DNA of 64,000 bases from Spirochaetia bacterium (GTDB taxonomy: Bacteria > Spirochaetota > Spirochaetia > WTKD01 > G963693115): NCBI GenBank assembly GCA_965226055.1, contig CBDDCA010000003.1:98076-162075 (forward strand). Direction: 5' to 3'. How positions within the stretch are numbered: position 1 is the stretch's first letter; the number at the start of each line of letters is the position of its first letter. Positions 5,326 through 56,149 of the stretch are shown piece by piece. Both the position numbers and the translations under genes were made by a program. Under the pieces are notes generated by a model that made no database searches, was not told the DNA's origin, and saw nothing but the letters and a program-made list of their open reading frames with translations.

Positions 5326-6549
5326 TCATTCCTTTGCTATCTGTCTATAGCTTTGTAAAAAATCTTTGAGACGAAGCATAGCCTCTCTCATAGTGTCTTC
5401 TGGGGCTAAACATACAATACGAAAAAAATTTTCTTTATGATAGTTAAATCCAGATGCAGGAACTAACAGCACATGTTTTTCGCGTAGAAAATCAAGGACA
5501 AACTGCTCTCCGTTTTGTATAGCATGCTCTTCTAAAAGCTGCGGAAAAATGTACATCGTCCCTTTAGGGGGCATAAATCGTAGTCCTGCTATGGAAGAAA
5601 GTCCTGTACAAGCAGCTTGCACTCTCTCATAAAATATACCCTTAGGCTTCATCAATGCGTCAATACGCTCTTGTTGCTGAAATACTGCTTGCAAACTGAG
5701 CTGTGCAATAACATTACTACATAAACGCAAGCTGGATAATTTTTCCATCGCATCCTTGAGCAATACTAATACATTTTTAGGATCGTATATGCACATCCAA
5801 CCGCAACGAAATCCAGGAGCTCTGTATGTTTTTGATATACCATTAAAAAAAATACAAGGAACATCATTCATCAATGTTGCAATAGGACAAGGCTCTTGTG
5901 CATCATATACAATACGCTCATAAATTTCATCTGAAAAAATGAGAAGCTGATGTTCTATTGCAACATTGATTATCTGTTGTAGCAATGTTTTAGAATACAC
6001 CGCTCCCGTAGGATTATTGGGAGAAATAATGACTATCGCACGAGTTTTGTTATTTATAAGCTTTTTTATATCCTCAATGCGTGGCATCCAATCATTTTCA
6101 ATATCACAGGAATAATATACTGGTGTTCCATGATTAAGATGAATCATAGCTGACCATAAAGGGTAATCAGGGGATGGTACAAGAATTTCATCCCCTGGAT
6201 TAATGAATGCACTCATACTCAGAGATATAAGCTCGCTTACTCCATTTCCAAGAAAAATAGAGTCGGGAGAAATAGCGAGATTGTAATTATGTGCATAATA
6301 GTGTGCAACTGCTTCACGCGATGTAAGAAGTCCCTTACTTTCAACATATCCTTGGGCAAGAGCTATATTATCACGCACATACTCTAGTACATGTGTATCT
6401 GTTTCAATACCAAAAGGGAATGTATTACCAATATTTAGTTTCAGTACCTCTTCACCTGCCTCTTCAAGTCGTAGGGCTTCTTGTAGAATAGGTCCTCTGA
6501 TAGCATAATGTACTTTCTTTACTGTATGAGAAATATTTTTAATATCCAT
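5326..6549 (-). CDS. alaA: PLP-dependent aminotransferase class I/II (AlaA/YfbQ-type alanine aminotransferase)
   Basis: YAIRGP, LKLNIGN, GNGVSELI, PDYPLW, SPNNPTGAVYS, DEIY, NGISKTYRAPGFRCGW. Confidence 0.85.
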   Translation of the reverse strand: MDIKNISHTVKKVHYAIRGPILQEALRLEEAGEEVLKLNIGNTFPFGIETDTHVLEYVRDNIALAQGYVESKGLLTSREAVAHYYAHNYNLAISPDSIFLGNGVSELISLSMSAFINPGDEILVPSPDYPLWSAMIHLNHGTPVYYSCDIENDWMPRIEDIKKLINNKTRAIVIISPNNPTGAVYSKTLLQQIINVAIEHQLLIFSDEIYERIVYDAQEPCPIATLMNDVPCIFFNGISKTYRAPGFRCGWMCIYDPKNVLVLLKDAMEKLSSLRLCSNVIAQLSLQAVFQQQERIDALMKPKGIFYERVQAACTGLSSIAGLRFMPPKGTMYIFPQLLEEHAIQNGEQFVLDFLREKHVLLVPASGFNYHKENFFRIVCLAPEDTMREAMLRLKDFLQSYRQIAKE

Positions 6550-6663
6550 ATAATACCATTCTTTTTATATTTATTATATACTGTTATATGAAAATATAAA
6601 ATAGTGTGCTTGTTTTGATTACTAAAGAAATCAATTTTGATAGCCGATGCTAATGGTAGGTCC

Positions 6664-7893
6664 ATGCTTACAAAAAAAATAACACAAATTGAAAGAAACA
6701 GCAGTGTAGACTCTCTCGGATATTTAGATAAAGATTTTATTTTATTTCTTCCAGAAACACAGTTTAACAATACAATTAAGCAAATTTTCAATGAACATCA
6801 GATAACAGAATATCAAACAGATGAAACATCAGGTATGCATGTCGCAACAACTAGTTCAGAAGATGCACAAAAAAATATCAAAGCTCTCTCTTTTGTGCAT
6901 ACTACAAAAAAAGTAGATAGCAAATATGTACGACTTCTCACCTTATATCCAAACTATGAAATAAAATATGAAGAGCTGTATCATCAAATCAAGAATATTG
7001 TACATAATATCGCTCTATTACAAACAGTAGATTATAAAGAAATTACTAATCTTATGTATGATAAAGTGTTACCGCTTATAAAAAAAGAACCTCTTGTATA
7101 TTTAGCTGCTCATGAATTCTATGTTAAAGAAAATCACATGCAATGTAAACTTATTAACTTTTTTTTACAGAACTTACTTTTCACTACCTCATTGCTTGAA
7201 CTTGACACGAGTAAAACATTTATCAGTATCGAAAAAAAGCTGCAAGTGAGTATATCCTCTATACTAGCAAATGTAGGGCTTATTATCGTACTTAATACAT
7301 TAGAAAAAGAAGAAGTAATAGGTATGTTGTTTACTCCTCAATTACGAAAAACAATCCCTAAACTAAGCAGTAAAATACTCAGTCATTCAATTTTTCCTCT
7401 TTCTCTTACACAAGGCATATTATTCTCTAAAGTACCATATGCTCATTTACAGAAAATACAAAAAAGAAGCTCAACATTGATACATCCATCCAATTTGTAT
7501 GAATTTTCTTTTATCATTAACTCGTATCTGTTTTTAGTGGGTGGCTACAATAAAAAAAAGCATTCTCCTCCTCAAGCAATAAAAATCATTGCACAACAAG
7601 CAAACAAAGAGTTTAATCCTGATTTTATAAAGGTTATTGTCAATGTCATCAGTACTATACCGCCTGGTACCTATGTGTCTTTGACTAATAAATCAAAAGG
7701 GATGATACTCTCTCCAAATATGGAACCTGAGAACACCGCTTCCTTTCAGGTATTATCTACAAAACATGATAACACAGTAGCTGATCTAAAGGTTATCACT
7801 GTTGATTCACAAGAGTTTAGTATAAGCAGTATTCTTTCTGAGGAAGAAAGTATGGCACTTCATAAGCACAGAAAATCTCTGTATCAATACTAG
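6664..7893 (+). CDS. HD-GYP-like domain protein with degenerate catalytic motifs
   Basis: C-terminus (SPPQAIKII..KEFNPDFIK..IPPGTYVSL..KGMIL) resembles spirochete HD-GYP proteins, but the LLHDIG position reads ILANVG. Start placed at ATG 6664; the ORF track starts at 6637. Confidence 0.5.
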   Translation: MLTKKITQIERNSSVDSLGYLDKDFILFLPETQFNNTIKQIFNEHQITEYQTDETSGMHVATTSSEDAQKNIKALSFVHTTKKVDSKYVRLLTLYPNYEIKYEELYHQIKNIVHNIALLQTVDYKEITNLMYDKVLPLIKKEPLVYLAAHEFYVKENHMQCKLINFFLQNLLFTTSLLELDTSKTFISIEKKLQVSISSILANVGLIIVLNTLEKEEVIGMLFTPQLRKTIPKLSSKILSHSIFPLSLTQGILFSKVPYAHLQKIQKRSSTLIHPSNLYEFSFIINSYLFLVGGYNKKKHSPPQAIKIIAQQANKEFNPDFIKVIVNVISTIPPGTYVSLTNKSKGMILSPNMEPENTASFQVLSTKHDNTVADLKVITVDSQEFSISSILSEEESMALHKHRKSLYQY

Positions 7894-7915
7894 CGCTGCA
7901 TTTTTTATAAAAGCA

Positions 7916-10303
7916 TCATTCTACTGTTTCCTTTTTGCTCAATTTTCTCTGTACTTGTATTTTTGTATGTATGCGCTTATTGGTAACTGTAAGTAAAATA
8001 CTATGAAATATACGATGATGAGAAGTATTTTTATGTACTATTTTTCTGAGCACTGTATCTGTTAAGATATCGTGTACTTCCTTTGCCATCATTCTCTTTA
8101 CATTTCTTGCTCCAAAAATAGGAGAGTGGCCTTTATTTGCTAAATATTCTACTACTGAATTATCCCAATGCAATGTTATATGGAGCTTTTTTAATTTTAC
8201 GGAAATGATATGCAATTCTCTTATCACTATATGTCGAATATGCTGTGTCTGTAATGTATTAAATGTAATGATCTCATCAAGCCTATTTCTAAATTCGGGT
8301 GTGAAGATATGGGAGGTTGCATCAAGCATAGCATTCTTTCCACGATAATTTTCTCCTTCAAAACCAACCTCTGATTGAATAGCATGTTCTGCACCTGCAT
8401 TTGAAGTCATACACAATAGAATATTACGGAAATCTGCTTTTCTTCCCATGCTATCAGTAATAGTGGCATAATCCATAATTTGCAGAAGAAGGTTGTATAC
8501 ATCAGCATGTGCTTTTTCAATCTCATCTAAAAGAAGTAAAGAATACGGAGAACGCCTTATATAATCTATCAGTACTCCCCCATTCGTATGTCCTACATAC
8601 CCAGGAGGAGAACCAATAAATTTTGATACTGAGCTTTGTTCTTGAAATTCACTCATATCAAAACGATGAAATGTAATAGCAAGCTCAGATGCCACTTGTT
8701 TACATAATTCTGTTTTCCCTACTCCTGTTGGCCCTACAAGCAAAAACGAAGCAAGTGGTTTATTCTCATCACTCAGTCCTGCTTTTGCACGATGTATTAC
8801 ATTAACAAAAGAATCAATAGCTTCGTCTTGTCCGAAAATAGTTTTTTTTAACTTTACTTTCAAATCTAAAAGCTCTTGTAGTTCATTTCCTTTAATACTT
8901 TTCAATGATCGTTTTGTTATTTTACTCATGACTAATTCTACATCTTCTTTCTTTACAACTTTTATTTTTTCTTTATTATTGGTATGATTTTTAAGCTTAA
9001 TAGATGAACCTATAGCATCAAGAATATCAATAGCTTTGTCAGGAAACGCTCTATCTGTAATATACTTTTTACTCAACTCTATAATATAATCAAACACTGT
9101 ATGGGAATAACTCACTCTATAAAATGCTTCAAATGTATCTTTTAATTGTAGTAAAATAGTTTTTACTTCTTTATTACTTGGCTCTTGCATTTCTACTACA
9201 TGAAAGCGACGAAATATACTTTTTTCACGTTCTATGAGCTTTAGCTCTTCATATGTGCAAGTACCTATACAGCGTATCTTATTATTTGCAAGCACAGGTT
9301 TTATAAGATCGCCAAAATCATTTCCATTTCCTGTGCTAGAACCTGTGTTCATAGCACTATATATATCATCAAGCAATAGAATATACTGTTTCTCTTTTGA
9401 AAAGGACTGCATGATCAATTTTACTCTCTCTTCAAAATCTCCTCTGTATCGAGTACCTGCTACCAATGCTGTAACATTAAGAGACAAAAGCTTTGTGTTA
9501 CTAAGCTCATGAGGTACTGCATTTTTCTGTATAAGATGAGCAAATTCATAGACCAATGATGTTTTTCCTACTCCAGCTTCACCCACTAAAAGAACATTAT
9601 TCTTTTGTCTTCTTAGTAAAACTTCTGTCACTTCGCTCAGGCAATCTAGTTGCCCTATAAAAGGTTCTAGCATGTTTTTTTCTGCCAATGCATTTATGTC
9701 AACTGTATATTTTTGTAATGTGTTTTCATTTTTATGTTCATCATGCTCTTCATCTTCTTGAGAGGCAAAGAGAGAAATATCTTCGTCTCCTTCAAGGGAT
9801 GGTATAGAAAAATTAATTTTTTTATTTGTTTCTGTATTGGTATCATAATTAAAAAAATCTTGAATAAAATCTTCATCTTTCATTATTTCAAGGATATCTT
9901 CCTCTTTTATATTTTGATTTTTGAAAAATGAAATTTTTTGACTATCTTCTATTTGAATCAACGCAATAAGTAAATCTTTAATACCTAATATATCTCTTTG
10001 TTCGCTTGCACAAAATAGAAATGATTTTTCTATAAGCTGTCTGTACTCTAAAGAATATGCGATTCTAAACAAAGAGTTTTTTTTAGTAGCACTCACAGGA
10101 ATATGAGAAAGATAGTCTACTAGTTCTCTTTTCATATCTTCAATACGAATATTTATCATATCAAAGATTGCTCGAATTGCAGGCTGATAAAGAAGCACAT
10201 ACAGAACATGCTCAGGGGTAATTTTTTGATGTTGATAGTATATAGCTTCATCACTTGCTGCATCTAAAATTAATTGAACATTTTCATCTAATTTAAGTTT
10301 CAT
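7916..10303 (-). CDS. clpA: ATP-dependent Clp protease ATP-binding subunit ClpA
   Basis: Clp N-domain (PEHVL), two AAA+ modules (GEAGVGKT; GPTGVGKTEL), RFDMSEF, GSPPGYVG, VGF ClpP-docking loop; no ClpB/C middle coiled coil. Confidence 0.9.
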   Translation of the reverse strand: MKLKLDENVQLILDAASDEAIYYQHQKITPEHVLYVLLYQPAIRAIFDMINIRIEDMKRELVDYLSHIPVSATKKNSLFRIAYSLEYRQLIEKSFLFCASEQRDILGIKDLLIALIQIEDSQKISFFKNQNIKEEDILEIMKDEDFIQDFFNYDTNTETNKKINFSIPSLEGDEDISLFASQEDEEHDEHKNENTLQKYTVDINALAEKNMLEPFIGQLDCLSEVTEVLLRRQKNNVLLVGEAGVGKTSLVYEFAHLIQKNAVPHELSNTKLLSLNVTALVAGTRYRGDFEERVKLIMQSFSKEKQYILLLDDIYSAMNTGSSTGNGNDFGDLIKPVLANNKIRCIGTCTYEELKLIEREKSIFRRFHVVEMQEPSNKEVKTILLQLKDTFEAFYRVSYSHTVFDYIIELSKKYITDRAFPDKAIDILDAIGSSIKLKNHTNNKEKIKVVKKEDVELVMSKITKRSLKSIKGNELQELLDLKVKLKKTIFGQDEAIDSFVNVIHRAKAGLSDENKPLASFLLVGPTGVGKTELCKQVASELAITFHRFDMSEFQEQSSVSKFIGSPPGYVGHTNGGVLIDYIRRSPYSLLLLDEIEKAHADVYNLLLQIMDYATITDSMGRKADFRNILLCMTSNAGAEHAIQSEVGFEGENYRGKNAMLDATSHIFTPEFRNRLDEIITFNTLQTQHIRHIVIRELHIISVKLKKLHITLHWDNSVVEYLANKGHSPIFGARNVKRMMAKEVHDILTDTVLRKIVHKNTSHHRIFHSILLTVTNKRIHTKIQVQRKLSKKETVE

Positions 10304-10495
10304 ATATTAGTCTAGTATAGCAACATTATGTAAATAATGTCTTTCATTTTGTAGTGGTATAGCTAGCTGCATTGTAATAATAACATATAAAAAAAGGCTG
10401 GCATGAATAACTGAAAAATGAGATAATGCAGAGAGAAGTGCTAAGAAAGAGTCAATTAGTACATAAGAAATAATATAGGAAGTATTTCTTTTTTC

Positions 10496-10509
10496 TCCTT
10501 GAACTCGTG
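10496..10509 (-). mobile_element. 14-bp remnant identical to the outer end of the IS30-family left inverted repeat
   Basis: Minus strand CACGAGTTCAAGGA is identical to 60474-60487. Confidence 0.55.
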
Positions 10510-10546
10510 CTTGATTATAATTTATATTATAAAAATTTTTAAATGC

Positions 10547-11353
10547 TTAGAACATCAATACACTATTTTCTTCTTTATATTTTTTAATTCTATTTCTTGA
10601 TAACTGACAATATTCTTTTGATATATCAATACCTATATAATTTCTTCCTAATTTTAAAGCTGTAACACAAGTAGTTCCACTACCACACATTGGATCAAAT
10701 ACTAAATCGCCTTTATTAGTCCATGAATTGATATGATCTCTTACTAATGCACAAGGAAAAGGAGCAGAATGCTTTTTTGCTTCCTGATCCTCAGCTTTTT
10801 TACCAACAACATAAGTCCATATATTACCTTTAATTTTTTGCCTTTGTACTGGATTAGCAAATTTTTCCCTCTTTTGTTCTCCTTTTGAGTAATTTTTATA
10901 TGTAGTTCCATTTAACTGTAGACCTGCGTGTAAGCAATCTATTTTTATTGGATTATGAGTCTTAACAGTTCCTTTACTAAAAACAAACATATATTCAAAC
11001 TCATTATTATATCTCTTTCTATATATCTGAGGGATTGGATTCTTTTTTTGAAATATCATTGTATCATGAAGATTAAAACCAATTTCTTTAAAATATAATG
11101 CTTGCTTAAAACTACTTCCAGTTTCACTGCCAGCAATTGTAGCATCTCCAACTACCCAAACTAAGATTCCTCCAATTTTAGTTATACGGAACAATTGTTT
11201 AGCTATTTTTTCAAATGGAAATGAATACCTTTTATAAGTACGTAAATTATCATAGGGAGGTGAAGTTATCGTTAAATCAACAAAATTGTCATCAAAAAAT
11301 CCCATTAAATTAGTACAATTTCCTTCAATTATTTGATTTAGATATTTTTGCAT
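10547..11353 (-). CDS. Site-specific DNA methyltransferase, beta class (N4-cytosine/N6-adenine)
   Basis: Motif IV TSPPY near the N-terminus, HSAPFP, motif I DPMCGSGTT near the C-terminus; adjacent to a restriction endonuclease gene. Confidence 0.9.
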   Translation of the reverse strand: MQKYLNQIIEGNCTNLMGFFDDNFVDLTITSPPYDNLRTYKRYSFPFEKIAKQLFRITKIGGILVWVVGDATIAGSETGSSFKQALYFKEIGFNLHDTMIFQKKNPIPQIYRKRYNNEFEYMFVFSKGTVKTHNPIKIDCLHAGLQLNGTTYKNYSKGEQKREKFANPVQRQKIKGNIWTYVVGKKAEDQEAKKHSAPFPCALVRDHINSWTNKGDLVFDPMCGSGTTCVTALKLGRNYIGIDISKEYCQLSRNRIKKYKEENSVLMF

Positions 11354-17115: not shown

Positions 17116-20100
17116 TTACGATGTACATGCTGAACTACCAGCAACCTTTGGGTACTGTGCTGTTTTGCCCTCCATAGCTGAACCTTTGAAATCATTAGGA
17201 TCTATTCTTGATCTGTTACACAATTTCCATGATGATAAATCTTGATCAAATTTAGAAGCCTCACGAAATATAAAAAGCGCTGATTGACTTGCTGATACTT
17301 TCTGTACATCCCAATTACTTATGTCTTGATTAAAAGCAGTAGCAGAAGCAAACATAAAACCTATATTCATTAAATTGCTCACATTCCAATTTCCTATGTC
17401 TTGATTAAAGGCAAAAGTATTATAAAACATACTGTGCATATTAGCTACTGTCCCCACATCCCAAGCACCTATATCTTGATTAAAGGTAGCAGCACCAGCA
17501 AACATAGCCCCCATATCCGTTACATTACTGGTATTCCACCGTGTTATGTCTCCATTAAAAGTTTTATCATTATCGAATAAACTATTCATATTAGTAATGG
17601 CACTGGTGTCTATCATGTTGAGGTTGGGACTAGGGTTACTGTTCCCTCCTGAACCTTGCCTTGTCTTTTCTTCACTGATAATAGTTTGTAGTGCTGATTT
17701 TGTTGTTGGTCTATAATAGGTAGCTGCTTTTCCCGATGGTGCTGTTCTTAGCTCTGTCTGTATAACGATAGTCGCTGGTACTTTTTTCTTTGATGCAGTA
17801 AGGGTACACTGTGCTACATCATAGCTATACTCAGTAATAGCAGTGTCTCGTATATTGGACTTATTTGCTATGCCTGTTATGGTAACTGTTTTGCTACTCT
17901 GATCAAACGATACTGTAAGGCCTGTTTCTTTTTTGATTTTCTTTGCATCTGCCTCTAGTATGGTGGCATCACAGGTAAAGGCATTGCCACTGGGTGTGCT
18001 TGCTAATACTCTTGTAGTATTTGATGCTAGTGCTGTACCTACTTCTGCTGATACTATGCTAATGTTTCCTATAGATATTGCACTTACTTCAAACTCGTGG
18101 CGTTCTCCTGTTGATGCTTTTGTGTCATCAGTGCTGTTTACTGCTTGTACGACTATTTCGTAGGTCGTTCCGTTTGTCAAGTTTGTCAGGGTAGTGTTGG
18201 TTGTTCCTGCTGCTACTGTTGTGGGGCTTGAGTCTGCTTGTTTTATTGCTGTTACATTTCTTGCACTGCCACCTTTGGCTACTTTGTATACCTTATATGA
18301 TACTTGTGCTACTGTTAGGGTAGCTCCTGTATTTGCTTTGTGGCTTGCACTGAGGCTGGGGGCTGTCCATGATACTCTCATACCTGTCTGGGCTACTCTC
18401 GTCTGTATAGTTGATACTTCTGCGGGGGCAGTCGCTCGCGATGCTGTCGTTACACTTGCCACTGTTGAGGATGCTACTTTCTTGCTTAGGTCTGTTTTTA
18501 CTGCTACTTCTACCACAAAGTAATACTTTGTCGCTCCTTTTACTGCTACTACTGGTGCTGTGTCTGATGACAAGCCTAAACTGGCAAGGGCTGGTACTGT
18601 GTACACTCCGCTACTTACACTGCCTAGGTTTACTTTTCTGCCTGCAAGTACTTCTGCTACTGTAGGGTCAGTGTCTTTCTGTAAGCCATATACTGTGTAT
18701 ACTAGCTGATTGCTTGCTGTTATGCTTGTGCCATCGTAGTCTTTTGCTCCTGTAAATGTGCTTAGCTCGGTAAGTACCAGCTTTATTGTGCCTGCTGTGT
18801 TTGTTGACTGTGATACTACCAGCTTTCCTGTGAGTAATGACTGGCTGGGTGCTACTGCTTTGGAAGTATAGATTTCCTTTATTTCTGTTACATCGGTGTA
18901 AAAGCCTGCAGGAAAGAGCTTGTCGCTATTTGTTGCATCGTAATTGGGGGATGTCGTGTTTACTATCCTTACTCCTATGTAGTAGTCTTTTGCTGTTTCT
19001 ATGGGCGTTGCTCCTGCATTGCTTCCACTGGTGCTGTCTACTATTGCTATGGATATTGTGTCTTGAGTTGTTCCTGTTGCTTTTGTGTATTTTGCTACTC
19101 TTGTACTGGTTTTCTCTGTTGCCCATAGTGCTGATACGCTGGCAGGCTTTCCTGTAGTATCTTCTTTCTTGAGGTATAGCACATAGTAGGCAAGGTCTGT
19201 CGCTTCAAGGGCATTGCCGTTTGCTTTGCTCACTCCTGCTATTGCTGAGGCATTTACTTGCACTGTTATGACTTTTTTCCCTCTATTGCTTCCTGTTGTA
19301 GGCACTGCAAATACTACTGCATTACTGTTAGTGTAGGTGGTGCTTTTTGGGGTATTTGGTGGTGCAGTAAGTGTTGCTTTCTTTATTGTTACTGATGCTC
19401 CTATACTATACAAGGGATTGAGGCTGTTTATCGCTTCTACTCCTGCGGTATAGTCTGCTCCTTTTGTTCCTATAAATGTTGCTTTTAATGGGGTACTATC
19501 TCCTGCTAGCTCCCGTGTTTGTACTCCTGCAAGGGCTTTTATTTCGTCTAGTGTCTTTGTGCTATGGTCTCCTGCTACTATGTATACTTTGTACTGTATT
19601 TGTGCTTGCGTGAGTTTTGCTCCACTGGGAGCTTTGTTATCATTGGTAATAGTACCTACACTAAATGTATAGACTGCTGTTGCAGTTGTTTGTGTTACTG
19701 ACTCTATGGAGAGTTTTGCATCTTTGGGAGCGGGCGGTGCTGTCGAGGTGCTATCGTATACTGCTACTGCATCACTCAGTGCGGTCACGGGGCTTACTCT
19801 GTTATTTGCTATTTGCAGAAAATCAAAGCGATAATTCTTGGCATTTGCTTGGCTCTTGGGTACTTCTACGCCATCTGCTATCCCAAAGCTAATGGTGGTT
19901 GCTGTGTTTGTTATGCTTTTTTCTGCTATTAAGGTAGCTCCATCTTTCATACGCAAAGTGTAGTATCGCCCTATGCCTGGAGCTTGCTTAAAAGTTGCTT
20001 TTATTTGTATAGCTCCTGTTGTGTCAAGGGTAGGCTTGCTTTGAAAGAGATCTTCTGAGGGAGCTGTGAGTGAGTTGGGGGTTGTTATGTCTTTTGTTGC

Positions 20101-21774
20101 TTGGGTGCTTTTGTTTTCTGAGTAATCAAGCGTGAGTATTGTTATGGTGTATGTTTTGCCTTGCGTGAGTTCTTCGACAGAGAGTGATGTTGTGGGATAG
20201 GGTATTTTCTTCTCGCTCAGTACTGTGGTGCTTGTGCCTTTTTCTGCTATGCTTACGCTGTATTCTTTTATGTCTTTGTTATTGGCTTTTGTTGTATCGG
20301 GGGCTGTCCATGTTATCTGTGTGCCTATCTTTGCTGCTGATACAAAGGGATAGCTTGCTTGTATGCTTGTCACTGCATCGGGGGCGGTGCTATCTGCTGC
20401 GGTAGTGACTGTAACATTTTCTGCTGTTCCTTTGTTGCCTGCACTGTCCATTGATACGACTGCCACTGTATACTCGGTGGTTGCTTTGAGGCCTGTTATC
20501 TGCGTGTTGCGTACTGCTCTCTCTGTTATTGTTACTGTCTTTGCCGCGGTACTGCTGTCCTTTTCTGTTGCTGTTATAGTCACTCCTGCGTAGTCTCGTA
20601 CATCGGGGGCTTGCCAGCCTACTACTAGGCTTGTTGCTCCTCCTATGGCACTCACATTGCTTACAGGCTCTGTACTTTTGTCTGTTGTTGCTTGTTCTTT
20701 TGACACTGCAGTGGAGTACTTTCCGTTTTTAAAAACATACACTTCTACTTTGTAAGTAAGCGTGCCGTAGAGTTTTGTGAGGGCTATGCCATCTTTTGCT
20801 ACATACACAGTGGCGTACTCTTGATTGTCTGCACTTGCTCCGCTGACATTTGTTGCACTTGTATCTTTGTCTATTGTCTCCTCTGCTACTACTGTATTTG
20901 TTGCGGTTGCTATCACTCGTACTTGGAGACTTTTGTTTGAAAAGTCAAAGCTGTCATCTTTATCATCCCACATAATAAGCAGGCTTTCATCTGCTGGGCT
21001 ATTGCTTTTATCGTTTGCTGTTACTGTAAGATCTGCCTCTGGCAGTGGCGTTACTGTTTGTGAGAGTGCTGATGGCACTATGCCTCTGAGTGCTTGCTTT
21101 GCCGTACTTTCGTTACCGTTGCTATCTTTGTATACTACTACTATATCATAGCTTATGCCGTCTATCGTAGGGACAGCAATGCTCACTTCTCCTTGTGTTA
21201 CATCTTGTACGGATACTTCTGTCTTTACATTAGTAGTTTTTTCTATCACCTGTATTGTGGCTTCTGCTATGTCTGTTTTGCCTGACGAGAGCAGTGCTTT
21301 GTCCCATGTTAGCTTTATGCCATTTGTTGCTGATTCTACTGCTACTTGGGTAAAGGTGTCCTGTGGTGCAGTTTCATCGGTCAGTGTTGTCACAGAGCGA
21401 GTTGTTTTTGGTGATACTTCTGTGTCTGAGCCTGATTTTTGGGCTTCTATCTCTACAGTATAATCGGTAGTAGCATGCAAGCCTCTGAGTGTGTAGGGTC
21501 TGTTTTGTTGAAACAATGCACGATATTCTATTGCAGGAACACGCACCTGTATAGATTGTGCTGGCGCAGTTGATGTAGCTTTTACGACTACATGCGTGGC
21601 TTCGCTGGGAGCTTGCCAGCGTAACGAGAGCGTCCCATCGTTGCCTGCTGCTTGTATCTGCACATTGGACACTGATGCAAGTGTCGGGGTTACTGGCGTT
21701 CCCCCTCCGCCTGATGAGGAACTGCTGCTACTCTCCGAACATCCTACGAGTACGAGGGTAGTCATTGCTAGCAC
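17116..21774 (-). CDS. Large surface lipoprotein (paralog 1): FN3/Ig-like stalk plus C-terminal DUF285/BspA-type LRR repeats; true start probably ATG 21869, out of frame at a G15 tract
   Basis: Lipobox LVLVG-C; FN3-like motifs (LRWQAP, VGWQAP, ITWTAP, VSWTAP; ITGLKATTEYTVAV; LTNLTNGTTYEIVVQA); C-terminal FNQDIGxWxVxxVxxMxxMF 25-aa repeats. Confidence 0.85.
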   Translation of the reverse strand: MLAMTTLVLVGCSESSSSSSSGGGGTPVTPTLASVSNVQIQAAGNDGTLSLRWQAPSEATHVVVKATSTAPAQSIQVRVPAIEYRALFQQNRPYTLRGLHATTDYTVEIEAQKSGSDTEVSPKTTRSVTTLTDETAPQDTFTQVAVESATNGIKLTWDKALLSSGKTDIAEATIQVIEKTTNVKTEVSVQDVTQGEVSIAVPTIDGISYDIVVVYKDSNGNESTAKQALRGIVPSALSQTVTPLPEADLTVTANDKSNSPADESLLIMWDDKDDSFDFSNKSLQVRVIATATNTVVAEETIDKDTSATNVSGASADNQEYATVYVAKDGIALTKLYGTLTYKVEVYVFKNGKYSTAVSKEQATTDKSTEPVSNVSAIGGATSLVVGWQAPDVRDYAGVTITATEKDSSTAAKTVTITERAVRNTQITGLKATTEYTVAVVSMDSAGNKGTAENVTVTTAADSTAPDAVTSIQASYPFVSAAKIGTQITWTAPDTTKANNKDIKEYSVSIAEKGTSTTVLSEKKIPYPTTSLSVEELTQGKTYTITILTLDYSENKSTQATKDITTPNSLTAPSEDLFQSKPTLDTTGAIQIKATFKQAPGIGRYYTLRMKDGATLIAEKSITNTATTISFGIADGVEVPKSQANAKNYRFDFLQIANNRVSPVTALSDAVAVYDSTSTAPPAPKDAKLSIESVTQTTATAVYTFSVGTITNDNKAPSGAKLTQAQIQYKVYIVAGDHSTKTLDEIKALAGVQTRELAGDSTPLKATFIGTKGADYTAGVEAINSLNPLYSIGASVTIKKATLTAPPNTPKSTTYTNSNAVVFAVPTTGSNRGKKVITVQVNASAIAGVSKANGNALEATDLAYYVLYLKKEDTTGKPASVSALWATEKTSTRVAKYTKATGTTQDTISIAIVDSTSGSNAGATPIETAKDYYIGVRIVNTTSPNYDATNSDKLFPAGFYTDVTEIKEIYTSKAVAPSQSLLTGKLVVSQSTNTAGTIKLVLTELSTFTGAKDYDGTSITASNQLVYTVYGLQKDTDPTVAEVLAGRKVNLGSVSSGVYTVPALASLGLSSDTAPVVAVKGATKYYFVVEVAVKTDLSKKVASSTVASVTTASRATAPAEVSTIQTRVAQTGMRVSWTAPSLSASHKANTGATLTVAQVSYKVYKVAKGGSARNVTAIKQADSSPTTVAAGTTNTTLTNLTNGTTYEIVVQAVNSTDDTKASTGERHEFEVSAISIGNISIVSAEVGTALASNTTRVLASTPSGNAFTCDATILEADAKKIKKETGLTVSFDQSSKTVTITGIANKSNIRDTAITEYSYDVAQCTLTASKKKVPATIVIQTELRTAPSGKAATYYRPTTKSALQTIISEEKTRQGSGGNSNPSPNLNMIDTSAITNMNSLFDNDKTFNGDITRWNTSNVTDMGAMFAGAATFNQDIGAWDVGTVANMHSMFYNTFAFNQDIGNWNVSNLMNIGFMFASATAFNQDISNWDVQKVSASQSALFIFREASKFDQDLSSWKLCNRSRIDPNDFKGSAMEGKTAQYPKVAGSSACTS
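17512..19553. repeat. About 2.04-kb dispersed repeat, highly similar to 61957-64000 (shared stalk of lipoprotein paralogs 1 and 3)
   Basis: Long identical runs by direct comparison. The offset is 44445 at one end and 44447 at the other, explained by two 1-bp insertions in copy 3. Confidence 0.9.
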
Positions 21775-21821
21775 CCATGTCAGTGCAACTATAGTTAGGT
21801 TTTGCTTATATCGAGAGTGTA

Positions 21822-21836
21822 CCCCCCCCCCCCCCC
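21822..21836 (-). repeat. Homopolymeric G15 tract (C15 on +) in the signal-peptide coding region; candidate phase-variation switch
   Basis: Lies between the RBS-linked ATG (21869) and the lipobox. 15 G gives a stop after 24 codons; 13 or 16 G restores the frame. Confidence 0.85.
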
Positions 21837-21871
21837 GATTTTCACAGCTTGTAGATCTCTATGTATCATAA

Positions 21872-21918
21872 AGTCCTCCTTATGTTATTTAGTATAATAT
21901 ACGAATATTATTATAGCA
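21872..21918 (-). promoter_or_regulatory. Extended -10 promoter (TGCTATAAT) and AGGAGG RBS of lipoprotein paralog 1
   Basis: TGCTATAAT at 21910-21918 (minus); AGGAGG shortly before ATG 21869; identical TGCTATAAT upstream of paralog 2. Confidence 0.6.
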
Positions 21919-21971
21919 TATATGGTATTTTATATGTCTATAAAGTAAATGGTACGCATCTCTATGTATTA

Positions 21972-24900
21972 CTATGACTTACATTCTTTACTATTTATGT
22001 CCTTTGGGTACTGTGCTGTTTTTCCTGCCATAGCTGAATCTGAGAAATCAAAACTGTCAAGGAATACCTTACACAATCTCCATGATGATAAATTTTGATC
22101 AAATGCAGAGGCTTTTTCAAACGCAGCAGCAAAACTATTAACATTCCTTACATTCCAATTTCCTATGTCTTGATTAAAGGTATTTGCTCTATTAAACATT
22201 GCAAACATCTCCCTTACATTATTCACATTCCAATTTCCTATGTCTTGATTAAAGGCACTTGCTCTCGTAAACATTGAAAACATATTCCTTACATTACTGG
22301 TATTCCACTGTGTTATGTCTCCATTAAAAGTACTATCGTTATCAAATAAATTACTCATATCAGTGATAGCACTGGTATCTATCATGTTGAGGTTGGGGCT
22401 ATTGGTATTTTGCCTCCCTTCTCCTCTTTCTGCACTGATAATAGCCTTAAGCTGTTTCTTTGTTACTGGTCTGTAATAGGTAGCTTTTTCTCCTGATGGA
22501 GCTACTTTTAGCTCTGTTTTTATGATAATGCTTGCGGGTACTCTTTTATTCGAAGCGGTAATTGTACACTGTACTACGTCATAGCTATAGTTAGTAATAG
22601 CAAGATCATGTACATTAGATTTATTTGCTATGCCTGATATGGTAATTGTTTTGCTACTCTGTTCAAACTGTACTGCTAAGCCTGTTTCTTCTTTGATTTT
22701 TTTGCTATCTGCCTCCCGTATATTAACATCACAGGTAAATGCAACGCCACTGGGACTGCTTACTAACCTTCTTGTAGTATGTGCTGATCTTGGGGCTTTG
22801 CCTACTTCTGCTGAAACCTCCATAGTGTTTCCTATAATCACTGCTGACATTTCAAATTCGTATCGTAGTCCAGTTGATTCTTTTGTCATATCGGTGCTGT
22901 TTACTGCTTGCACGACTATTTCATAGGTTACTCCGTTTGTCAATCCTGTCAAGGTAGTGTTTGTTGTTCCTACTGCTACTGTTTTGGGGCTTGAGTCTGC
23001 TGCTTTTATCTGTGCTATGCTTCTTGTGTTACCACTCTTAGCAATGCTATATACTTTGTACGATACTTGTGCAGCTGTTAAAGTATCGCCCGTATCTTCC
23101 TTGTGACTTGCGCTGAGGTTTGGGGCTGTCCACGATACTCTCATGCCTATTGGAGTTGCTCTTGTTTGTATGTTTCTTACTTCTGCTGGAGCAGTCGCTA
23201 GCGATGTAGTTGTTACGCTTGCTACTGATGAAGAAGCTACTTTTTTGCTAGGATCTGCTTTTATTGCCACTTCCAATACAAAGTGATACTTTGTAGCTCC
23301 TTTTATTGCTATCACTGGTGCGGTGTCTGAAGATAAGCCTAAACTGGCAAGGACTGGTACTGTGTACATTCCGCTACTTGCACTGCCTATGTTTATCTTT
23401 CTGCCTGCAAGCACTTCTGCTACCGTAGGAGTTGTATCTTTCTGCAAGCCGTACACAGTGTACACAAGCTGTGCATCTGTTGTTATATCTTTGCCATCGT
23501 AGTCTTTTGCTCCCGTAAATATGTTTAGCTGGGTGAGCCTCAGATTTATTTTCCCTGCTGTGCTTGTTGACGGTGATACTACTAGCTTTCCTGTGAGTAA
23601 TGACTGATTGAGGGCTACTGCCTTCGAAGTATAGACTTCCTTTATTTCTGTTATATCAGTGTAAAAGCCTGCAGGAAAGAGCTTGTCAATATTTGATGCA
23701 TCGTAATCAGAGGATGTTGTGTTTACTATCCGCACTCCTATATAGTAGTCTTTTGCTGTTTCTATAGGTGTTGCTCCTGCATTGCTTCCACTGATACTGT
23801 CTACTATTGGTATTTGTATAGTCGCTTGATTTGTCACTCCTGTTGCTTTTGTGTACTTTGCTACTTTTACTGCTGTATTTGAATGGCTTTTTTCCACTGC
23901 CCATAAGGCTGATACATTTGCAGGCTTTTGGCTTGTGTCTTCTTTTTTGAGATACAGCACATAGTATGCAAGATCAGTTGCTTTAAGAGGAGTACCGTCT
24001 GCTTTACGCACCCCTGCTGTGGCTGAGGCACTTACCTGTACTGTAATGATTTTTTTTCCTGCATTGCCTCCTGTGGTAGGCACTGAAAATACTACAGCAT
24101 TATTGCTAGTGTATGTTGTTATTTTTGGTGTTGTTGGTGGAGGAGTGAGCGTTTTTGTTATTATTGTTCCTGATGCTCCTGCAATGCTATAGGAGGGACT
24201 GAGGCTGTTTATAGTTTCTACTCCTGCGGTATATACTGCTCCTTTTGTTCCTATAAATTTTACTTGTAATGGGGTGCTGTTTCCTGCTAGCTCTCTTTTT
24301 TGTACTCCTGCAAGGGCTTTTATTTCTTCTAGTGTCTTTGTGCTGTGATCTCCTTCTGCTATGTACACTTTGTATTGTATCTGTGCCTGTGTAAGTTTGC
24401 TTCCATTAGGAGCTTTGTTATCAATAGTAATGTCTCCTGCACTAAACTCGTAGACTGCTGTTGCAGTTGTTTGTGTTGCTGAAATTACAGAGAGCTTTGC
24501 GTCCTTGGGAGCAGGCGGTGCTGTTGAAGTATCATCGTATACTGCTACTGTACCAGCAAGAGAGGTTATGAATCTTACTATATTATTTTCTATTTGCAGA
24601 AAGATAAAGCGATACTCCTTCTTTGTTGCTTCTGTCTTGGGTACTTCTAAACCATCTGCTATGCCAAAGCTAATGGTGGTATCTGTTCCTGTTATGCTCT
24701 TGTCTGCTATTGAGTTTTTACTATAGCTAATGGTGGTATCTGTTCCTGCTGTGCTTTTGTCTGCTATTAAGTTTTTGCTATCGTACATAAGCAAGGTATA
24801 GTATCTTCCCACGCCAGGAGCTGTCTTAAAGGTTGCTTTTATCTGTACTGCTCCTGTTTTGTCTAAGCTAGGTTTGTTTTGAAAGATATCTTCTGATGGG

Positions 24901-25058
24901 GCTATAGGTTTAAGAGGAGGGTTAGGAGTCTGTATATCTGTGGTAGTTACTGTTTCTGTACATCCTAGCACAAAAAGCGTAGCCACTACTAGCAAGCATG
25001 CCAGCGTAACTGTAGTTATTCTTTGCAAAATCAAGGTACACCTCCTCAATTTTTTCAT
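21972..25058 (-). CDS. Surface lipoprotein (paralog 2): shorter FN3/Ig-like stalk plus C-terminal DUF285/BspA-type repeats
   Basis: Signal peptide ending LFVLG-C; colinear with paralog 1 from APSED onward; C-terminal FNQDIGNWNV repeats. Alternative start TTG 25034 after AGGAGG. Confidence 0.85.
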   Translation of the reverse strand: MKKLRRCTLILQRITTVTLACLLVVATLFVLGCTETVTTTDIQTPNPPLKPIAPSEDIFQNKPSLDKTGAVQIKATFKTAPGVGRYYTLLMYDSKNLIADKSTAGTDTTISYSKNSIADKSITGTDTTISFGIADGLEVPKTEATKKEYRFIFLQIENNIVRFITSLAGTVAVYDDTSTAPPAPKDAKLSVISATQTTATAVYEFSAGDITIDNKAPNGSKLTQAQIQYKVYIAEGDHSTKTLEEIKALAGVQKRELAGNSTPLQVKFIGTKGAVYTAGVETINSLSPSYSIAGASGTIITKTLTPPPTTPKITTYTSNNAVVFSVPTTGGNAGKKIITVQVSASATAGVRKADGTPLKATDLAYYVLYLKKEDTSQKPANVSALWAVEKSHSNTAVKVAKYTKATGVTNQATIQIPIVDSISGSNAGATPIETAKDYYIGVRIVNTTSSDYDASNIDKLFPAGFYTDITEIKEVYTSKAVALNQSLLTGKLVVSPSTSTAGKINLRLTQLNIFTGAKDYDGKDITTDAQLVYTVYGLQKDTTPTVAEVLAGRKINIGSASSGMYTVPVLASLGLSSDTAPVIAIKGATKYHFVLEVAIKADPSKKVASSSVASVTTTSLATAPAEVRNIQTRATPIGMRVSWTAPNLSASHKEDTGDTLTAAQVSYKVYSIAKSGNTRSIAQIKAADSSPKTVAVGTTNTTLTGLTNGVTYEIVVQAVNSTDMTKESTGLRYEFEMSAVIIGNTMEVSAEVGKAPRSAHTTRRLVSSPSGVAFTCDVNIREADSKKIKEETGLAVQFEQSSKTITISGIANKSNVHDLAITNYSYDVVQCTITASNKRVPASIIIKTELKVAPSGEKATYYRPVTKKQLKAIISAERGEGRQNTNSPNLNMIDTSAITDMSNLFDNDSTFNGDITQWNTSNVRNMFSMFTRASAFNQDIGNWNVNNVREMFAMFNRANTFNQDIGNWNVRNVNSFAAAFEKASAFDQNLSSWRLCKVFLDSFDFSDSAMAGKTAQYPKDINSKECKS
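24668..24781. repeat. Imperfect 57-bp (19-codon) tandem duplication inside lipoprotein paralog 2
   Basis: SKNLIADKSTAGTDTTISY / SKNSIADKSITGTDTTISF; single copy in paralog 1. Confidence 0.85.
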
Positions 25059-49128: not shown

Positions 49129-51615
49129 TTATAACTTAAATGTTAAGTACAGTGAAAATTCAAGATATTTCGTAAAACTATTAGCATCAATGTCATATGT
49201 ATATTCTCTTCCATCAATATCTTTATCTGATGCTCCTTCTATCTTATCATCTTTTATATCTCTCTTAAATGTTAAAAAAGCAAGTAAATTACCTAACGCA
49301 AAACGATAGTTAAAGGTAAGAACTTTATTATCCACAAACACTCCTGTAAAAGAAGGCACTAAGGTCATCACGGGAATGTACTCTCTTGCTGAATTAATTT
49401 CTCTTTCTTGCCTGATGAGATTTCCTTTATCATCTTTTACTACTTCGTTAGGAGTAAATGGTTTATCTATTGCAAAAGAACTAGACAGTGCAAAAGTAAA
49501 CACTTCGTGGGGGCTTACTGAGTATTTCATTCCAATAGTATGACGTGTATCATCATTAGACGGTAACCACTCGTTGTCTTTTGTATAGAAATAAGAAAAT
49601 CCTAGTGTATAGGAAAGCTCAAATGATTGAATATTTTTACTATACTTCCAACGAGTGGTTGCTCCAGTACCATAGCCATAATTTACTGGCTTATATGCAT
49701 AGCTTCGAGTGGCATCTGTATCTCTATATCTAAACTGACTAAATATTCCATGAAAATTATAGTACCAGCCAAAATACGGAGTAAGTGACAACTGATGATT
49801 TCCAAGCTCAATAAGGTATTTTGTAGAAGCCATGATGCCATAATTAGGATCTGTATACGATGTTTTGCTGTCTGTATACTCTACTGTTTTTTCTAATACT
49901 TTTCTGTCTATGTACTGCAATTTTTCTAAAAAAGCAGGACTCCATCCTAATGAAAAAGAAATAGTATGTATATCAGAAAAAGTGGTAGCGTATTCACTTC
50001 GAAGCGAAGGATACAAAGAGCTAGCTGATTGAGCAATCCATGATACCCCTGGGCTTATAGAAAATTTAACATCTCCCCTATCAAAGTAATCTTCATAGTC
50101 ATATTGACCGTATAGATACAATCGGAGATAATCTTCGTTTATTGTATACTTTGGTAACACATCCTTTTTTTGATCTGTAGGATTACTTATATTAGCATAT
50201 GTATAAGTATCTCCATAGCTAGCATCTAAGACAGAATATTCAACACTAGAGCCTGTGCTCACTATATGCTTATCAGTTAATGCCCATGAAAAAGAATCAT
50301 TCAACGCAGAGTACCATACTTTTGATGTTCCATCATAATCGTAGCCAATAGTTCCCTTCGTCTCCCCTCTTTCTTTTAAGCGCTTTATAGCATCATCTGA
50401 GAGTTTTTTTAATGTATACTGCGAATTTAATGAAACTACAGAATAGTATGAAATAATATCTATAACATGTAAGCCTCTATCTGCAACTACTTTTCGCCAC
50501 TGCATTCCTCCCCCAAAAAAGTAAGGAAAATCTTGCTTTTCTCCTTCAAATGGATCGTTTTGCAAATTAAGTGCTACATTCCACTGTATTATATCATAAT
50601 GGGAAAGCCCCAATACTTTTATCACATCATTTTGATTTTTATAGGTAAAAGATAAAAAATAATCCCCATATGCATACAAATCAATATTTATGTCACTATC
50701 ATCATAAGCTAACACTGCAATAATTGGAAGTATTGTATACCTCTCAATAGATTGCCGTGCTATCGCAAATAATGTTGCATGCTTTCCTATTTTCTGCTTA
50801 TACCCAATATAAGGAGCAGTAACACTCAACCCTAACAAAAGACGATTATTCTGCACATCTTTAGGATATGCAATTACTGTTCCTCCAAGTGATTGTCCAT
50901 ACCTTCCAGGAGGAGGACCCTTGATGGTCTTAATAGAGCCTACTGTTTCCTTAGTGATAATAGGTTGGTTACTATTGGAATAATGTGCATTAGTCGGAAC
51001 AGGCAAAAAATCAACATAGTTCTGATTCCATGCACTGTCTCCTCCAAATACAGAATAACTTGTTCCTAATGTAAAAAATGAATTTGTGCTAGGCGCTATA
51101 ACTCTTGACAGAAAGCTATTTCCTATATCATCTTGCACTACTCCTGCTTCAGAGGTAATAATACTAAAAGGATCGCCTCTTGCAAGAGAGGTATTTTCTA
51201 CCTCAGCTTCCCCGTACTCTGTAATGTTTGGCTCTTGTTGTATATCTCTGTCTGCAGTAACTATTATCTCTTCTTCTACTAACTCAGCCTGTGAAGATTG
51301 TTCCACTACAATCTCAAATACTGTCGGGTTAGTGCTGTTATCTTGTCCTGCATTAACGCTAAAAGAAAAATCAACTTCATCAGCAGCAAGAGTGATGACT
51401 TTAAGCGTATACTCACCTGGATCTACATCAAAAAAAGCAAATTTACCTTCTTTATCACTTAGTTCAATAATATCTAACTCAATGAGTATGACCGTTGCTT
51501 CAACAACAGGTTCATCATTTTGTATAATGCTCCCATAATAATCTTCGGAAAATACAGTAATATTCCCTACTAACAATAAGAAACATATAACCCTACTCAA
51601 TTTCTTATATACCAT
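49129..51615 (-). CDS. TonB-dependent receptor (copy 1) with N-terminal carboxypeptidase-regulatory-like domain
   Basis: Signal peptide; EPVVEATV...SDKEGKF..PGEYTL domain; TonB box EEIIVTA; plug motifs (SVFGG..N..VD..PV; IKG...RYG..LGG); amphipathic beta-strands; divergent from exbBD-tonB. Start at MVYKK after GGAG. Confidence 0.8.
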   Translation of the reverse strand: MVYKKLSRVICFLLLVGNITVFSEDYYGSIIQNDEPVVEATVILIELDIIELSDKEGKFAFFDVDPGEYTLKVITLAADEVDFSFSVNAGQDNSTNPTVFEIVVEQSSQAELVEEEIIVTADRDIQQEPNITEYGEAEVENTSLARGDPFSIITSEAGVVQDDIGNSFLSRVIAPSTNSFFTLGTSYSVFGGDSAWNQNYVDFLPVPTNAHYSNSNQPIITKETVGSIKTIKGPPPGRYGQSLGGTVIAYPKDVQNNRLLLGLSVTAPYIGYKQKIGKHATLFAIARQSIERYTILPIIAVLAYDDSDINIDLYAYGDYFLSFTYKNQNDVIKVLGLSHYDIIQWNVALNLQNDPFEGEKQDFPYFFGGGMQWRKVVADRGLHVIDIISYYSVVSLNSQYTLKKLSDDAIKRLKERGETKGTIGYDYDGTSKVWYSALNDSFSWALTDKHIVSTGSSVEYSVLDASYGDTYTYANISNPTDQKKDVLPKYTINEDYLRLYLYGQYDYEDYFDRGDVKFSISPGVSWIAQSASSLYPSLRSEYATTFSDIHTISFSLGWSPAFLEKLQYIDRKVLEKTVEYTDSKTSYTDPNYGIMASTKYLIELGNHQLSLTPYFGWYYNFHGIFSQFRYRDTDATRSYAYKPVNYGYGTGATTRWKYSKNIQSFELSYTLGFSYFYTKDNEWLPSNDDTRHTIGMKYSVSPHEVFTFALSSSFAIDKPFTPNEVVKDDKGNLIRQEREINSAREYIPVMTLVPSFTGVFVDNKVLTFNYRFALGNLLAFLTFKRDIKDDKIEGASDKDIDGREYTYDIDANSFTKYLEFSLYLTFKL

Positions 51616-51706
51616 TATATCTCCCATAGTGTATTATTTTGTCATAATATCTCTGTTGAGAAACTATTTAGAGTGTTATTATTTGTATATATCCTTTGTT
51701 ATAATC

Positions 51707-54358: not shown

Positions 54359-54434
54359 TATATTCCTCCATAGTATATTATATTTTGTCATAGATATTTC
54401 TATTAAGAACTATTTTTTATAACAAATATTTACA

Positions 54435-55739: not shown

Positions 55740-55742
55740 ACT

Positions 55743-56132: not shown

Positions 56133-56149
56133 TAATATACAGGATACCT

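Follow-up and report, generated by a model that had tools for sequence, protein, structure and literature searches.

A 64,000-nt stretch of Spirochaetia bacterium DNA (GenBank assembly GCA_965226055.1, contig CBDDCA010000003.1, forward-strand positions 98,076 to 162,075; hereafter the window, numbered from its first letter) contains three minus-strand paralogs, at 17116-21869, 21972-25058 and 61638-64000, that share a stalk and end in a C-terminal tip built of variable repeats. How such tips diversify, and how their display is controlled, is the question raised by this locus. The original prediction likened the proteins to a variable leucine-rich repeat (LRR) receptor with exchange of 75-bp modules. 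Our analysis favors a different reading, which we regard as probable: the family is a contingency-gene repertoire of candidate adhesins with distinct tips, switched by poly-G runs, and not an assembly system of the kind known from lamprey VLR proteins.

The leader G run of paralog 1 and its counterparts in the family

All three paralogs lie where they had been placed, and each is positive for DUF285 (Pfam PF03382), which matched the C-terminus of paralog 1 with 158.6 bits, that of paralog 2 with 119.7 bits and the tip piece of paralog 3 with 121.2 bits (cutoff 25). The body of paralog 1 matched fn3 (PF00041) in four stretches (94.3 bits) and that of paralog 2 scored 27.3 bits for the same family (cutoff 25). 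LRR_5, the BspA-type LRR family, was absent for all three among the Pfam families listed at E up to 0.01, and "BspA family" occurs only as a source's name for one distant protein match (P0070). From its sequence, the family protein is predicted to be a surface lipoprotein of ~1,550 residues with a signal peptide, a Ser/Gly linker, an FN3 stalk and a C-terminal DUF285 solenoid. The three genes and the parts of paralog 1 are arranged as follows.

17116-21869, minus strand: paralog 1, full-length family gene, with its ATG out of frame with the 1580-codon frame 17116-21858
21867-21880, minus strand: AGGAGG ribosome-binding site and ATG (21869) of paralog 1, read from the sequence
21822-21836, minus strand: G15 run (C15 on the plus strand) in the leader-peptide coding region, candidate slipped-strand switch
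21739-21821, minus strand: rest of the paralog 1 signal peptide, VHSRYKQNLTIVALTWVLAMTTLVLVG, and lipobox Cys codon (21739-21741), from translation and an L-V-G-C regular expression
17755-21738, minus strand: paralog 1 stalk, a Ser/Gly linker and then an all-beta array including FN3 domains (fn3 in 4 stretches)
17116-17754, minus strand: paralog 1 tip domain, from the AlphaFold2 model, tip alignment and module analysis
21972-25058, minus strand: paralog 2, short form, 1028 aa, intact, with its own lipoprotein-type leader MKKLRR...LFVLGC and no poly-G
61638-64000, minus strand: paralog 3, pseudogene in several frames, one module fewer than paralog 1, 5' part beyond the window end

The location given for paralog 1 as one gene held up, but its single reading frame did not. 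From the ATG, translation runs for 24 codons, MIHRDLQAVKIGGGGGYTLDISKT*, and stops at a TAA (21795-21797), because the G15 run, which begins 11 codons past the ATG, leaves the lipoprotein frame at +1 relative to the ATG frame. The stop-to-stop frame (17116-21858) carries ...HSRYKQNLTIVALTWVLAMTTLVLVGC with the Ser/Gly linker next. An intact gene starting at 21869 is ruled out by this frame change, and paralog 1 appears to be currently OFF; by reading of the sequence, 13 or 16 G would connect its ATG to the lipoprotein frame. The run, which the original account of the locus had overlooked, is the sole G/C run of at least 9 or A/T run of at least 11 in the 64-kb window. The leader type of paralog 1 (MIHRDLQ...), out of frame here, is in frame at locus L007 of the related genome described below and in protein P0028 (MIHRDLQAVKIGGGGVHSRYKQN). 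A regular-expression match identified the putative lipoprotein leader ...HSRYKQN-LTIVALTWVLAMTTLVLVG-C in paralog 1 and 31 related leaders.

A protein search of a 5.8-billion-protein set gave 73 matches among 7999 scored candidates, with 68 strong family members on only a few contigs and, below them, a steep score drop to unrelated FN3 or BspA-named proteins. In a scan of species-representative genomes, 146 stretches gave a match and 44 of them encode relatives; these fall in 36 loci (L numbers below), all on OZ244590.1, a Spirochaetia bacterium metagenome-assembled genome of 2,360,799 bp. Thus the further copies that had been anticipated exist in number and, at ~4.6 kb each, would take up ~7% of that chromosome. 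The housekeeping flanks of paralogs 1 and 2 compared with L029, and of paralog 3 compared with L024, are 95.7-96.3% identical; the window therefore comes from a close relative of OZ244590.1. As judged from these searches, the family seems confined to one lineage of uncultured Spirochaetia bacterium, with ~40 copies per genome. Extraction of family genes with 900 codons or more yielded 39 distinct ones (37 in the loci, 2 in the window); such gene counts are lower bounds, since the motif filter skipped the main L029 gene (modules FNKN/FNKD) and L027 is also missing. Nearly all copies retain open frames of ~1,500 codons.

In the 595,440 bp of and around the 36 loci, G runs of at least 9 were listed 33 times, 32 of them unique (L016 and L032 overlap), and every one lies in a family leader on the coding strand, with none elsewhere. 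Their lengths are G11 (1), G12 (4), G13 (1), G14 (10), G15 (10), G16 (3), G17 (1) and G18 (2). Upstream of each tract, in about six leader types, stand an ATG and a good ribosome-binding site; downstream follow VHSRYKQN..., a hydrophobic core and LVGC. The leader is in frame in 7 of the 31 evaluated (L006, L007, L009, L017, L018, L019 and L021; the L012 leader was left out), and in the remaining 24 a stop follows 4-9 codons beyond the tract. The A run that directly precedes the tract is likewise variable (A6 to A8), and the in-frame combinations seen are A6 with G14 or G17, A7 with G13 or G16, and A8 with G15. Among 66 database relatives, 7 show an in-frame Gly run, 31 are called just before the lipobox, 19 have another leader without a Gly run and 9 are otherwise truncated. 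Calls of the second kind are what would be expected when a gene caller meets an out-of-frame tract; dozens of family genes have been annotated with truncated starts because the poly-G frame change went unrecognized. As read from the assemblies, tract length decides whether the ATG is in frame, and most copies are out of frame. The leader tracts have the anatomy of a slipped-strand contingency switch, from which we infer the switching itself.

The G runs might instead not be DNA-level switches at all: their lengths could be mis-called and the genes be in frame, or slippage of RNA polymerase or ribosomes on them could bring part of the products back into frame, with low, graded expression from all copies. 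Polymerases can slip on tracts as long as 11-18 G, OZ244590.1 is a metagenome assembly, and G14 and G15, one step off an in-frame length, make up 20 of the 32 tracts. This reading is countered by the same tract place in 32 leaders with eight length values, a spread far beyond one-base calling error, by the occurrence of one leader type both in and out of frame, and by an upstream A run that co-varies with the tract in the in-frame combinations above. We consider this alternative unlikely.

Some copies depart from the usual leader. At L012 (5919-13770), a 2617-codon open frame, ~1,000 codons above the usual length, has a G15 tract and a variant leader. At L003 (5925-5990), a poly-T region is joined straight to the mature coding region with leader and lipobox gone (P0037 starts MYFFFFFFLW...), and the gene looks like a copy silenced by deletion. 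In 11 OZ244590.1 loci, listed below, the ATG lies ~110-190 nt downstream of a T13-T17 run with conserved flanks (...gatgtaT(n)cttt...), which is followed after ~50 nt by a TATAAT-like box.

T13-T17 runs: L001 5833, L002 5749, L003 5925, L004 5759, L006 5762, L013 5827
T13-T17 runs, continued: L017 5768, L022 5761, L023 5830, L025 5829, L031 5758

Some genes with this run have no poly-G run, and paralogs 1 and 2 of the window are without it. The T run may be a second, transcriptional length switch.

Paralog 2 lacks the N-terminal ~540 residues of the long form. Its ortholog in the related genome (P0002, L029 2697-5804) is 88% identical in amino acid sequence overall, and the structure model of whole paralog 2 is mostly beta over residues 59-850, at low confidence (mean predicted local distance difference test score (pLDDT) 66). 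Paralog 2 is a stable ortholog without a switch.

Stalks, tips and the positions that vary

Paralogs 1 and 3 are 91.8% identical across 2164 nt, and paralogs 1 and 2 are 79.2% identical across 2592 nt. In 60-nt windows, identity between paralogs 1 and 3 stays at 0.82-1.00 down to ~17573/62018, with a single exception (0.77, window at 19383), and beyond that point falls through 0.78, 0.72, 0.62 and 0.57 to 0.48. The 51-bp block at 17512-17562, identical on the minus strand to 61957-62007 and bounded by a mismatch at either end, lies just past the inferred recombination breakpoint (~17582). The similarity over ~2 kb that ends at this block, and the loss of identity after it, were therefore as originally described.

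The predicted difference in module number was likewise found: paralog 3 has about one module fewer than paralog 1, seen as gaps of 80 nt and 4 nt. Its pseudogene state had been missed. Relative to paralog 1 it carries 1-bp C insertions near 63009 and 62185, both in non-repetitive context, and a 7-bp difference near 61720 that puts the cap out of frame. These three frame-breaking differences rule out an intact gene, and paralog 3 is a decayed copy. A cysteine-containing cap had been assigned to every paralog; both Cys are indeed invariant in 39 of 39 aligned tips, but the "YPK...C" of paralog 3 is read only in the shifted frame.

The drop in identity marks a recombination junction. Between paralogs 1 and 3, synonymous divergence (dS) rises from 0.18 in the stalk to 0.89 in the tip modules; between paralog 1 and L011, which has the closest tip, it instead drops, from 0.33 (stalk) to 0.14 (tip). 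In a three-sequence test, 219 stalk sites group paralog 1 with paralog 3 and 65 group it with L011, while the corresponding numbers for the tip are 15 and 91 (Fisher p = 2e-30). The maximum chi-square breakpoint falls at 17582/17581, directly before the 51-bp block. Paralog 1 is a chimera with its breakpoint at the stalk/tip junction, as suspected when the sharp boundary was attributed to recombination or gene conversion. Painting of paralog 1 against the related genome in 200-nt windows shows the best paralog switching every 200-400 nt in the stalk, with runners-up mostly 1-2 points behind; in the tip, L011 is best in every window with a lead of up to ten points. The junction block has a DNA identity of 88-94% versus 61-81% in the tip modules beyond it, and the junction is unusually clean.

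Turnover is evident between the two genomes. At the syntenic place of paralog 1 in L029, between the paralog 2 ortholog and trpB and with flanks 92-96% identical, lies a gene (5914-10554) that has the leader type of paralog 1 but the other stalk subfamily and a different tip; L011, the relative of the paralog 1 tip, is ~600 kb away from this place in OZ244590.1. Across assemblies, different stalks can bear one tip type, with identities of 0.85 in the tip and 0.42 in the stalk for L008/P0046, 0.80 and 0.44-0.59 for L031/P0015, and 0.77 and 0.37-0.47 for L019/P0009.

Across the family, stalks fall into two subfamilies with an amino acid identity of ~0.9 within each and, depending on the segment, 0.2-0.9 between them. 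The notion of a constant stalk thus holds within a subfamily but not for the last ~250 residues, which are more variable (0.62-0.78). Tip identity is 0.54-0.63 within subfamily A, within subfamily B and between A and B alike; therefore the tips carry no subfamily signal. Among subfamily-A pairs (n = 78), the synonymous difference is ~0.15 in the stalk and ~0.40 in the tip, and stalks have a ratio of nonsynonymous to synonymous divergence (dN/dS) of 0.1-0.4, tips one of 0.5-0.9. Taken from these comparisons, the stalks appear to have been repeatedly homogenized among paralogs while tips retained their identity across the junction, and the unit of recombination would be the whole tip versus the stalk, not the single module.

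The tip of paralog 1 consists, in order, of an N-terminal helix, the NLNMIDTSAIT/FNGDIT cap, four further modules (three of 25 residues and one of 28) and a C-terminal cap with two Cys. Its AlphaFold2 model (mean pLDDT 92.2) shows one helix and then a repeat in which DSSP assigns each module one beta-bridge, at position 15. Foldseek listed only LRR proteins as matches to this model, none at E <= 0.001; the best, a non-significant match to a TLR5-VLR hybrid, had E = 0.039 and a template modeling (TM) score of 0.27. A profile search against PDB sequences gave no matches. The mycoplasma-type DUF285 layout, ~25-residue tandem modules with a conserved upstream NLNMIDTSAIT block, is present in both its parts.

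Tips all differ among the 39 distinct genes, and their pairwise identity has a median of 0.55 and a 95th percentile of 0.65 (69 family proteins with a recognizable tip, of 72 collected). Module number per tip ranges from ~3 to 7. Of 150 modules extracted, 129 are exactly 25 residues long. Among these, positions F1, W8, V13, F20 and A23 are almost fixed and entropy peaks at 2.7-3.7 bits at positions 7, 15, 17, 18, 21 and 22, in line with the kept framework and changing intervening residues noted at the outset. The N-cap (YYRP..., NLNMIDTSAIT, FNGDIT.WN) is invariant or nearly so in all 39 tips.

Substitutions at these six variable positions were compared with those at the remaining module positions in young pairs (dS 0.1-0.25), using dN/dS figures that ignore recombination. 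The ratios are 3.6 and 0.73 for paralog 1/L011, 2.8 and 0.45 for L025/L035, 1.0 and 0.14 for L020/L033, and, from small counts, 1.2 and 0.41 for paralog 2 and its ortholog. In adjacent modules of the same gene with at least 75% nucleotide identity (18 of 89 pairs), which are likely recent tandem duplicates, dN/dS is 2.3 at variable positions and 0.39 at the rest. The all-against-all module comparison (1.96 versus 0.33) is weak, being near saturation (nonsynonymous proportion (pN) up to 0.71). These patterns suggest that amino acid change is favored at positions 7, 15, 17, 18, 21 and 22. The diversifying selection that had been proposed thus finds support at six module positions in young pairs but not over whole tips, where dN/dS is at or under ~1.

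Tip diversity could still be passive. Gene conversion might act on stalks only and stop at the repeat-rich tip, leaving old paralogs in which relaxed constraint lets the tips drift and no functional repertoire exists. In favor of this, tips exceed stalks in synonymous divergence as well (proportion of synonymous differences (pS) ~0.40 versus 0.15), as if they were simply of greater age; most comparisons give a whole-tip dN/dS under 1; and paralog 3 shows that copies decay. Drift of this kind is at odds with dN/dS of 2.3-3.6 at the six module positions in young pairs against 0.4-0.7 at framework positions, with the preservation of framework, N-cap and the two cap Cys throughout the 39 tips, with a paralog 2 tip 92% conserved between two genomes, and with the open frames of nearly all copies. 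Passive divergence is, in our judgment, improbable.

The search for donor modules came out empty. A FNQDI-type DNA pattern has 7 matches in the window, all 7 within the three paralogs (shuffled sequences average 0.15, and none of 100 reaches 7), which leaves no orphan module arrays there; no silent donor cassettes were found in the 595,440 bp around the related loci. The six open reading frames (ORFs) below 900 aa with the motif in that sequence comprise a family-like gene of 558 aa, three DUF285 proteins of other kinds and two frames truncated at the end of a locus. None of the 129 25-residue modules is identical between genes, contrary to the proposal that modules are common to several loci. 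Changes in module number seem to arise through tandem duplication within the tip, and not by copying from an archive. A cassette system like lamprey VLR or Borrelia vlsE, in which expressed genes are rebuilt by copying 75-bp modules from silent arrays, has in its favor the receptor-like layout of stalk, N-cap, variable modules and Cys cap and the non-significant Foldseek match, but the absence of orphan modules from the window and the related loci, the lack of modules shared exactly between genes, and the ribosome-binding site, ATG and leader that every copy possesses all speak against VLR-like assembly; we regard the cassette reading, and with it the 75-bp module exchange first envisaged, as largely refuted and very improbable.

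A probable switched repertoire and its genomic setting

In the poly-G-switched repertoire that we favor, the G run would slip during replication, and each gene would toggle on and off independently and reversibly, such that the population displays changing subsets of tips. The tips would serve as ligand-binding heads, adhesins or receptors of differing specificities, held off the cell by the stalk. Gene conversion among paralogs would homogenize stalks and could place a tip behind another leader.

Several observations count against this reading. On the side of the switch, differences among paralogs reflect tract instability over evolutionary time only, and not clonal switching; long G runs are prone to sequencing error, so that single ON/OFF calls from the metagenome assembly may be wrong; and 7 of 31 leaders in frame is not clearly different from the 1/3 expected by chance. 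No G run is present in the leaders of L001, L013 (gene from 5781), L023 and L025, nor in the 19 of 66 database proteins with another leader. Starts called after the tract leave room for low expression from internal starts, and the lipobox comes from pattern match and the surface location from prediction. On the side of the tips, the tip of the paralog 2 ortholog (0.92) is more conserved than its stalk (0.85-0.87), and so not all tips evolve fast; the six positions were picked from the family's own entropy profile, which is partly circular; and neither the near-saturated all-against-all comparison nor whole-tip dN/dS adds weight to selection.

A more far-reaching version would make the family a two-layer diversity generator, in which ~32 independent poly-G switches assign each cell its own random selection from ~40 germline-encoded LRR heads and a dedicated crossover point moves whole tips. 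Crossover would take place at the YYRPTTK...NLNMIDTSAIT block, including the 51-bp identity, and tips would move between leaders, stalk subfamilies and loci, by which a silent tip could come behind an in-frame leader. As receptors, the heads would then together cover many different surfaces of hosts or partners, with diversifying selection acting on a defined binding stripe. If true, this would be a bacterial counterpart, in logic, of variable-LRR receptors, built from complete genes. We hold it to be possible but rather doubtful.

Should the switched repertoire itself prove correct, ~7% of a chromosome would be given to one family of switchable surface heads, placing it among the larger contingency-gene repertoires known. 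It would also clearly exemplify position-specific diversifying selection on DUF285, a domain of unknown function, point to this domain as a binding module with module positions 7, 15, 17, 18, 21 and 22 as the candidate residues, and illustrate that concerted evolution of stalks and preservation of distinct tips can coexist across one junction.

In the window, the paralogs are surrounded by ordinary chromosomal genes (trpA/trpB, a nickel/peptide-type ABC transporter, a V-type ATPase operon, mutS2 and several aminoacyl-tRNA ligases). One mobile element lies ~90 nt past the 3' end of paralog 3.

60582-61547, plus strand: IS30-family transposase gene (NCBIfam transpos_IS30, 236.4 bits, cutoff 80)

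This gene is missing from the syntenic place in L024 and has a 91% identical copy in L017. Between 16900 and 25400, promoter-like sites (20 versus 18 ± 5 in shuffled sequence) and terminator-like sites (14 versus 8 ± 3.5) were uninformative, and no promoter is claimed.

Two adjacent ORFs of 832 and 840 aa (49129-51627 and 51869-54391, minus strand) have no NCBIfam match at 1e-10 and adjoin a cluster of ExbB/TolQ-like and TonB-C-terminal genes (54683-56734); they may encode outer-membrane receptors. An adenine-specific DNA methyltransferase-like gene (10547-11353, minus strand) gives CcrM-type matches well under the equivalog cutoffs and is followed by a 210-aa ORF with no family match. In the related genome, smaller DUF285 proteins of another design are encoded beside family loci (L028 4483-6732, L019 3-848 and L021 4920-5780, the last on the minus strand). 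One such neighboring ORF, of 750 aa, contains many near-identical FNSDLSNWNVSNVTNM modules. All 11 loci below 1.01 Mb in OZ244590.1 are in forward orientation and 23 of the 25 above 1.18 Mb are reversed (exceptions L014 and L030), a bias that fits co-orientation with replication, as far as locus positions indicate.

Comparison with known systems

The open-access literature searched yielded neither an account of an FN3-DUF285 family nor one of poly-G control over DUF285 genes, those of spirochaetes included. Individual elements of the system have parallels elsewhere. In the lamprey VLR, an N-cap, LRR modules that differ in number and vary in residue at set positions, a Cys C-cap and a stalk follow one another, and the parts of the present family are in the same order. 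The family differs from the lamprey VLR in having no cassette assembly and no significant structural match (best E = 0.039, TM 0.27), and its diversity is germline-encoded in ~40 complete genes.

Closer at the level of the domain are the DUF285 repertoires of ruminant mycoplasmas. According to the respective reports, Mycoplasma agalactiae Drp comprises 12-13 drp genes per genome in variable loci, of which only 2 are expressed, with phase variation judged 'unlikely' and one A6/A7 difference noted (PMC2824730); M. feriruminatoris, with DUF285 proteins also known from the M. mycoides cluster, has ~27 of them per strain, with 25-residue repeats and a 16-residue upstream motif (PMC10634449); and one M. 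bovis DUF285 member binds beta-actin (PMC8707762). These repertoires and the present family share PF03382, 25-residue tandem repeats after a conserved upstream motif and, by pattern match in the present family, lipoprotein signal peptides, and both are scattered, multi-copy sets that differ between strains, with pseudogenes and insertion sequence (IS) elements nearby. In contrast to the mycoplasma proteins, the domain here takes up only the final ~190 of 1,550 residues in an FN3-stalk protein of a spirochaete and, unlike in Drp, nearly every copy has a G11-G18 leader run.

Among spirochaetes, Treponema pallidum has the tpr genes, a multigene family encoding candidate surface proteins, with expression linked to the length of poly-G tracts (PMC7864442). 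The present family resembles tpr as a spirochaete multigene set of candidate surface proteins linked to poly-G. The tpr poly-G tracts are located in promoters and act on transcription, and the family has 12 copies. The proteins are unrelated to those described here, whose tract is inside the leader coding region.

The nearest analogy in genetic design is offered by Neisseria Opa and Helicobacter pylori Bab/Sab, dispersed paralogs in which a repeat in the signal-peptide coding region sets the frame of each copy. Their proteins combine conserved parts with hypervariable binding regions, and gene conversion makes chimeras. They are beta-barrels or Hop-type outer-membrane proteins with CTCTT or CT as the repeat, present in ~11 or a handful of copies. 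The family described here likewise has many dispersed paralogs, a leader repeat that would set the frame copy by copy, and paralog chimeras; it differs from Opa and Bab/Sab in its homopolymer repeat, its FN3-stalk lipoprotein with an LRR-like tip, and its ~40 copies.

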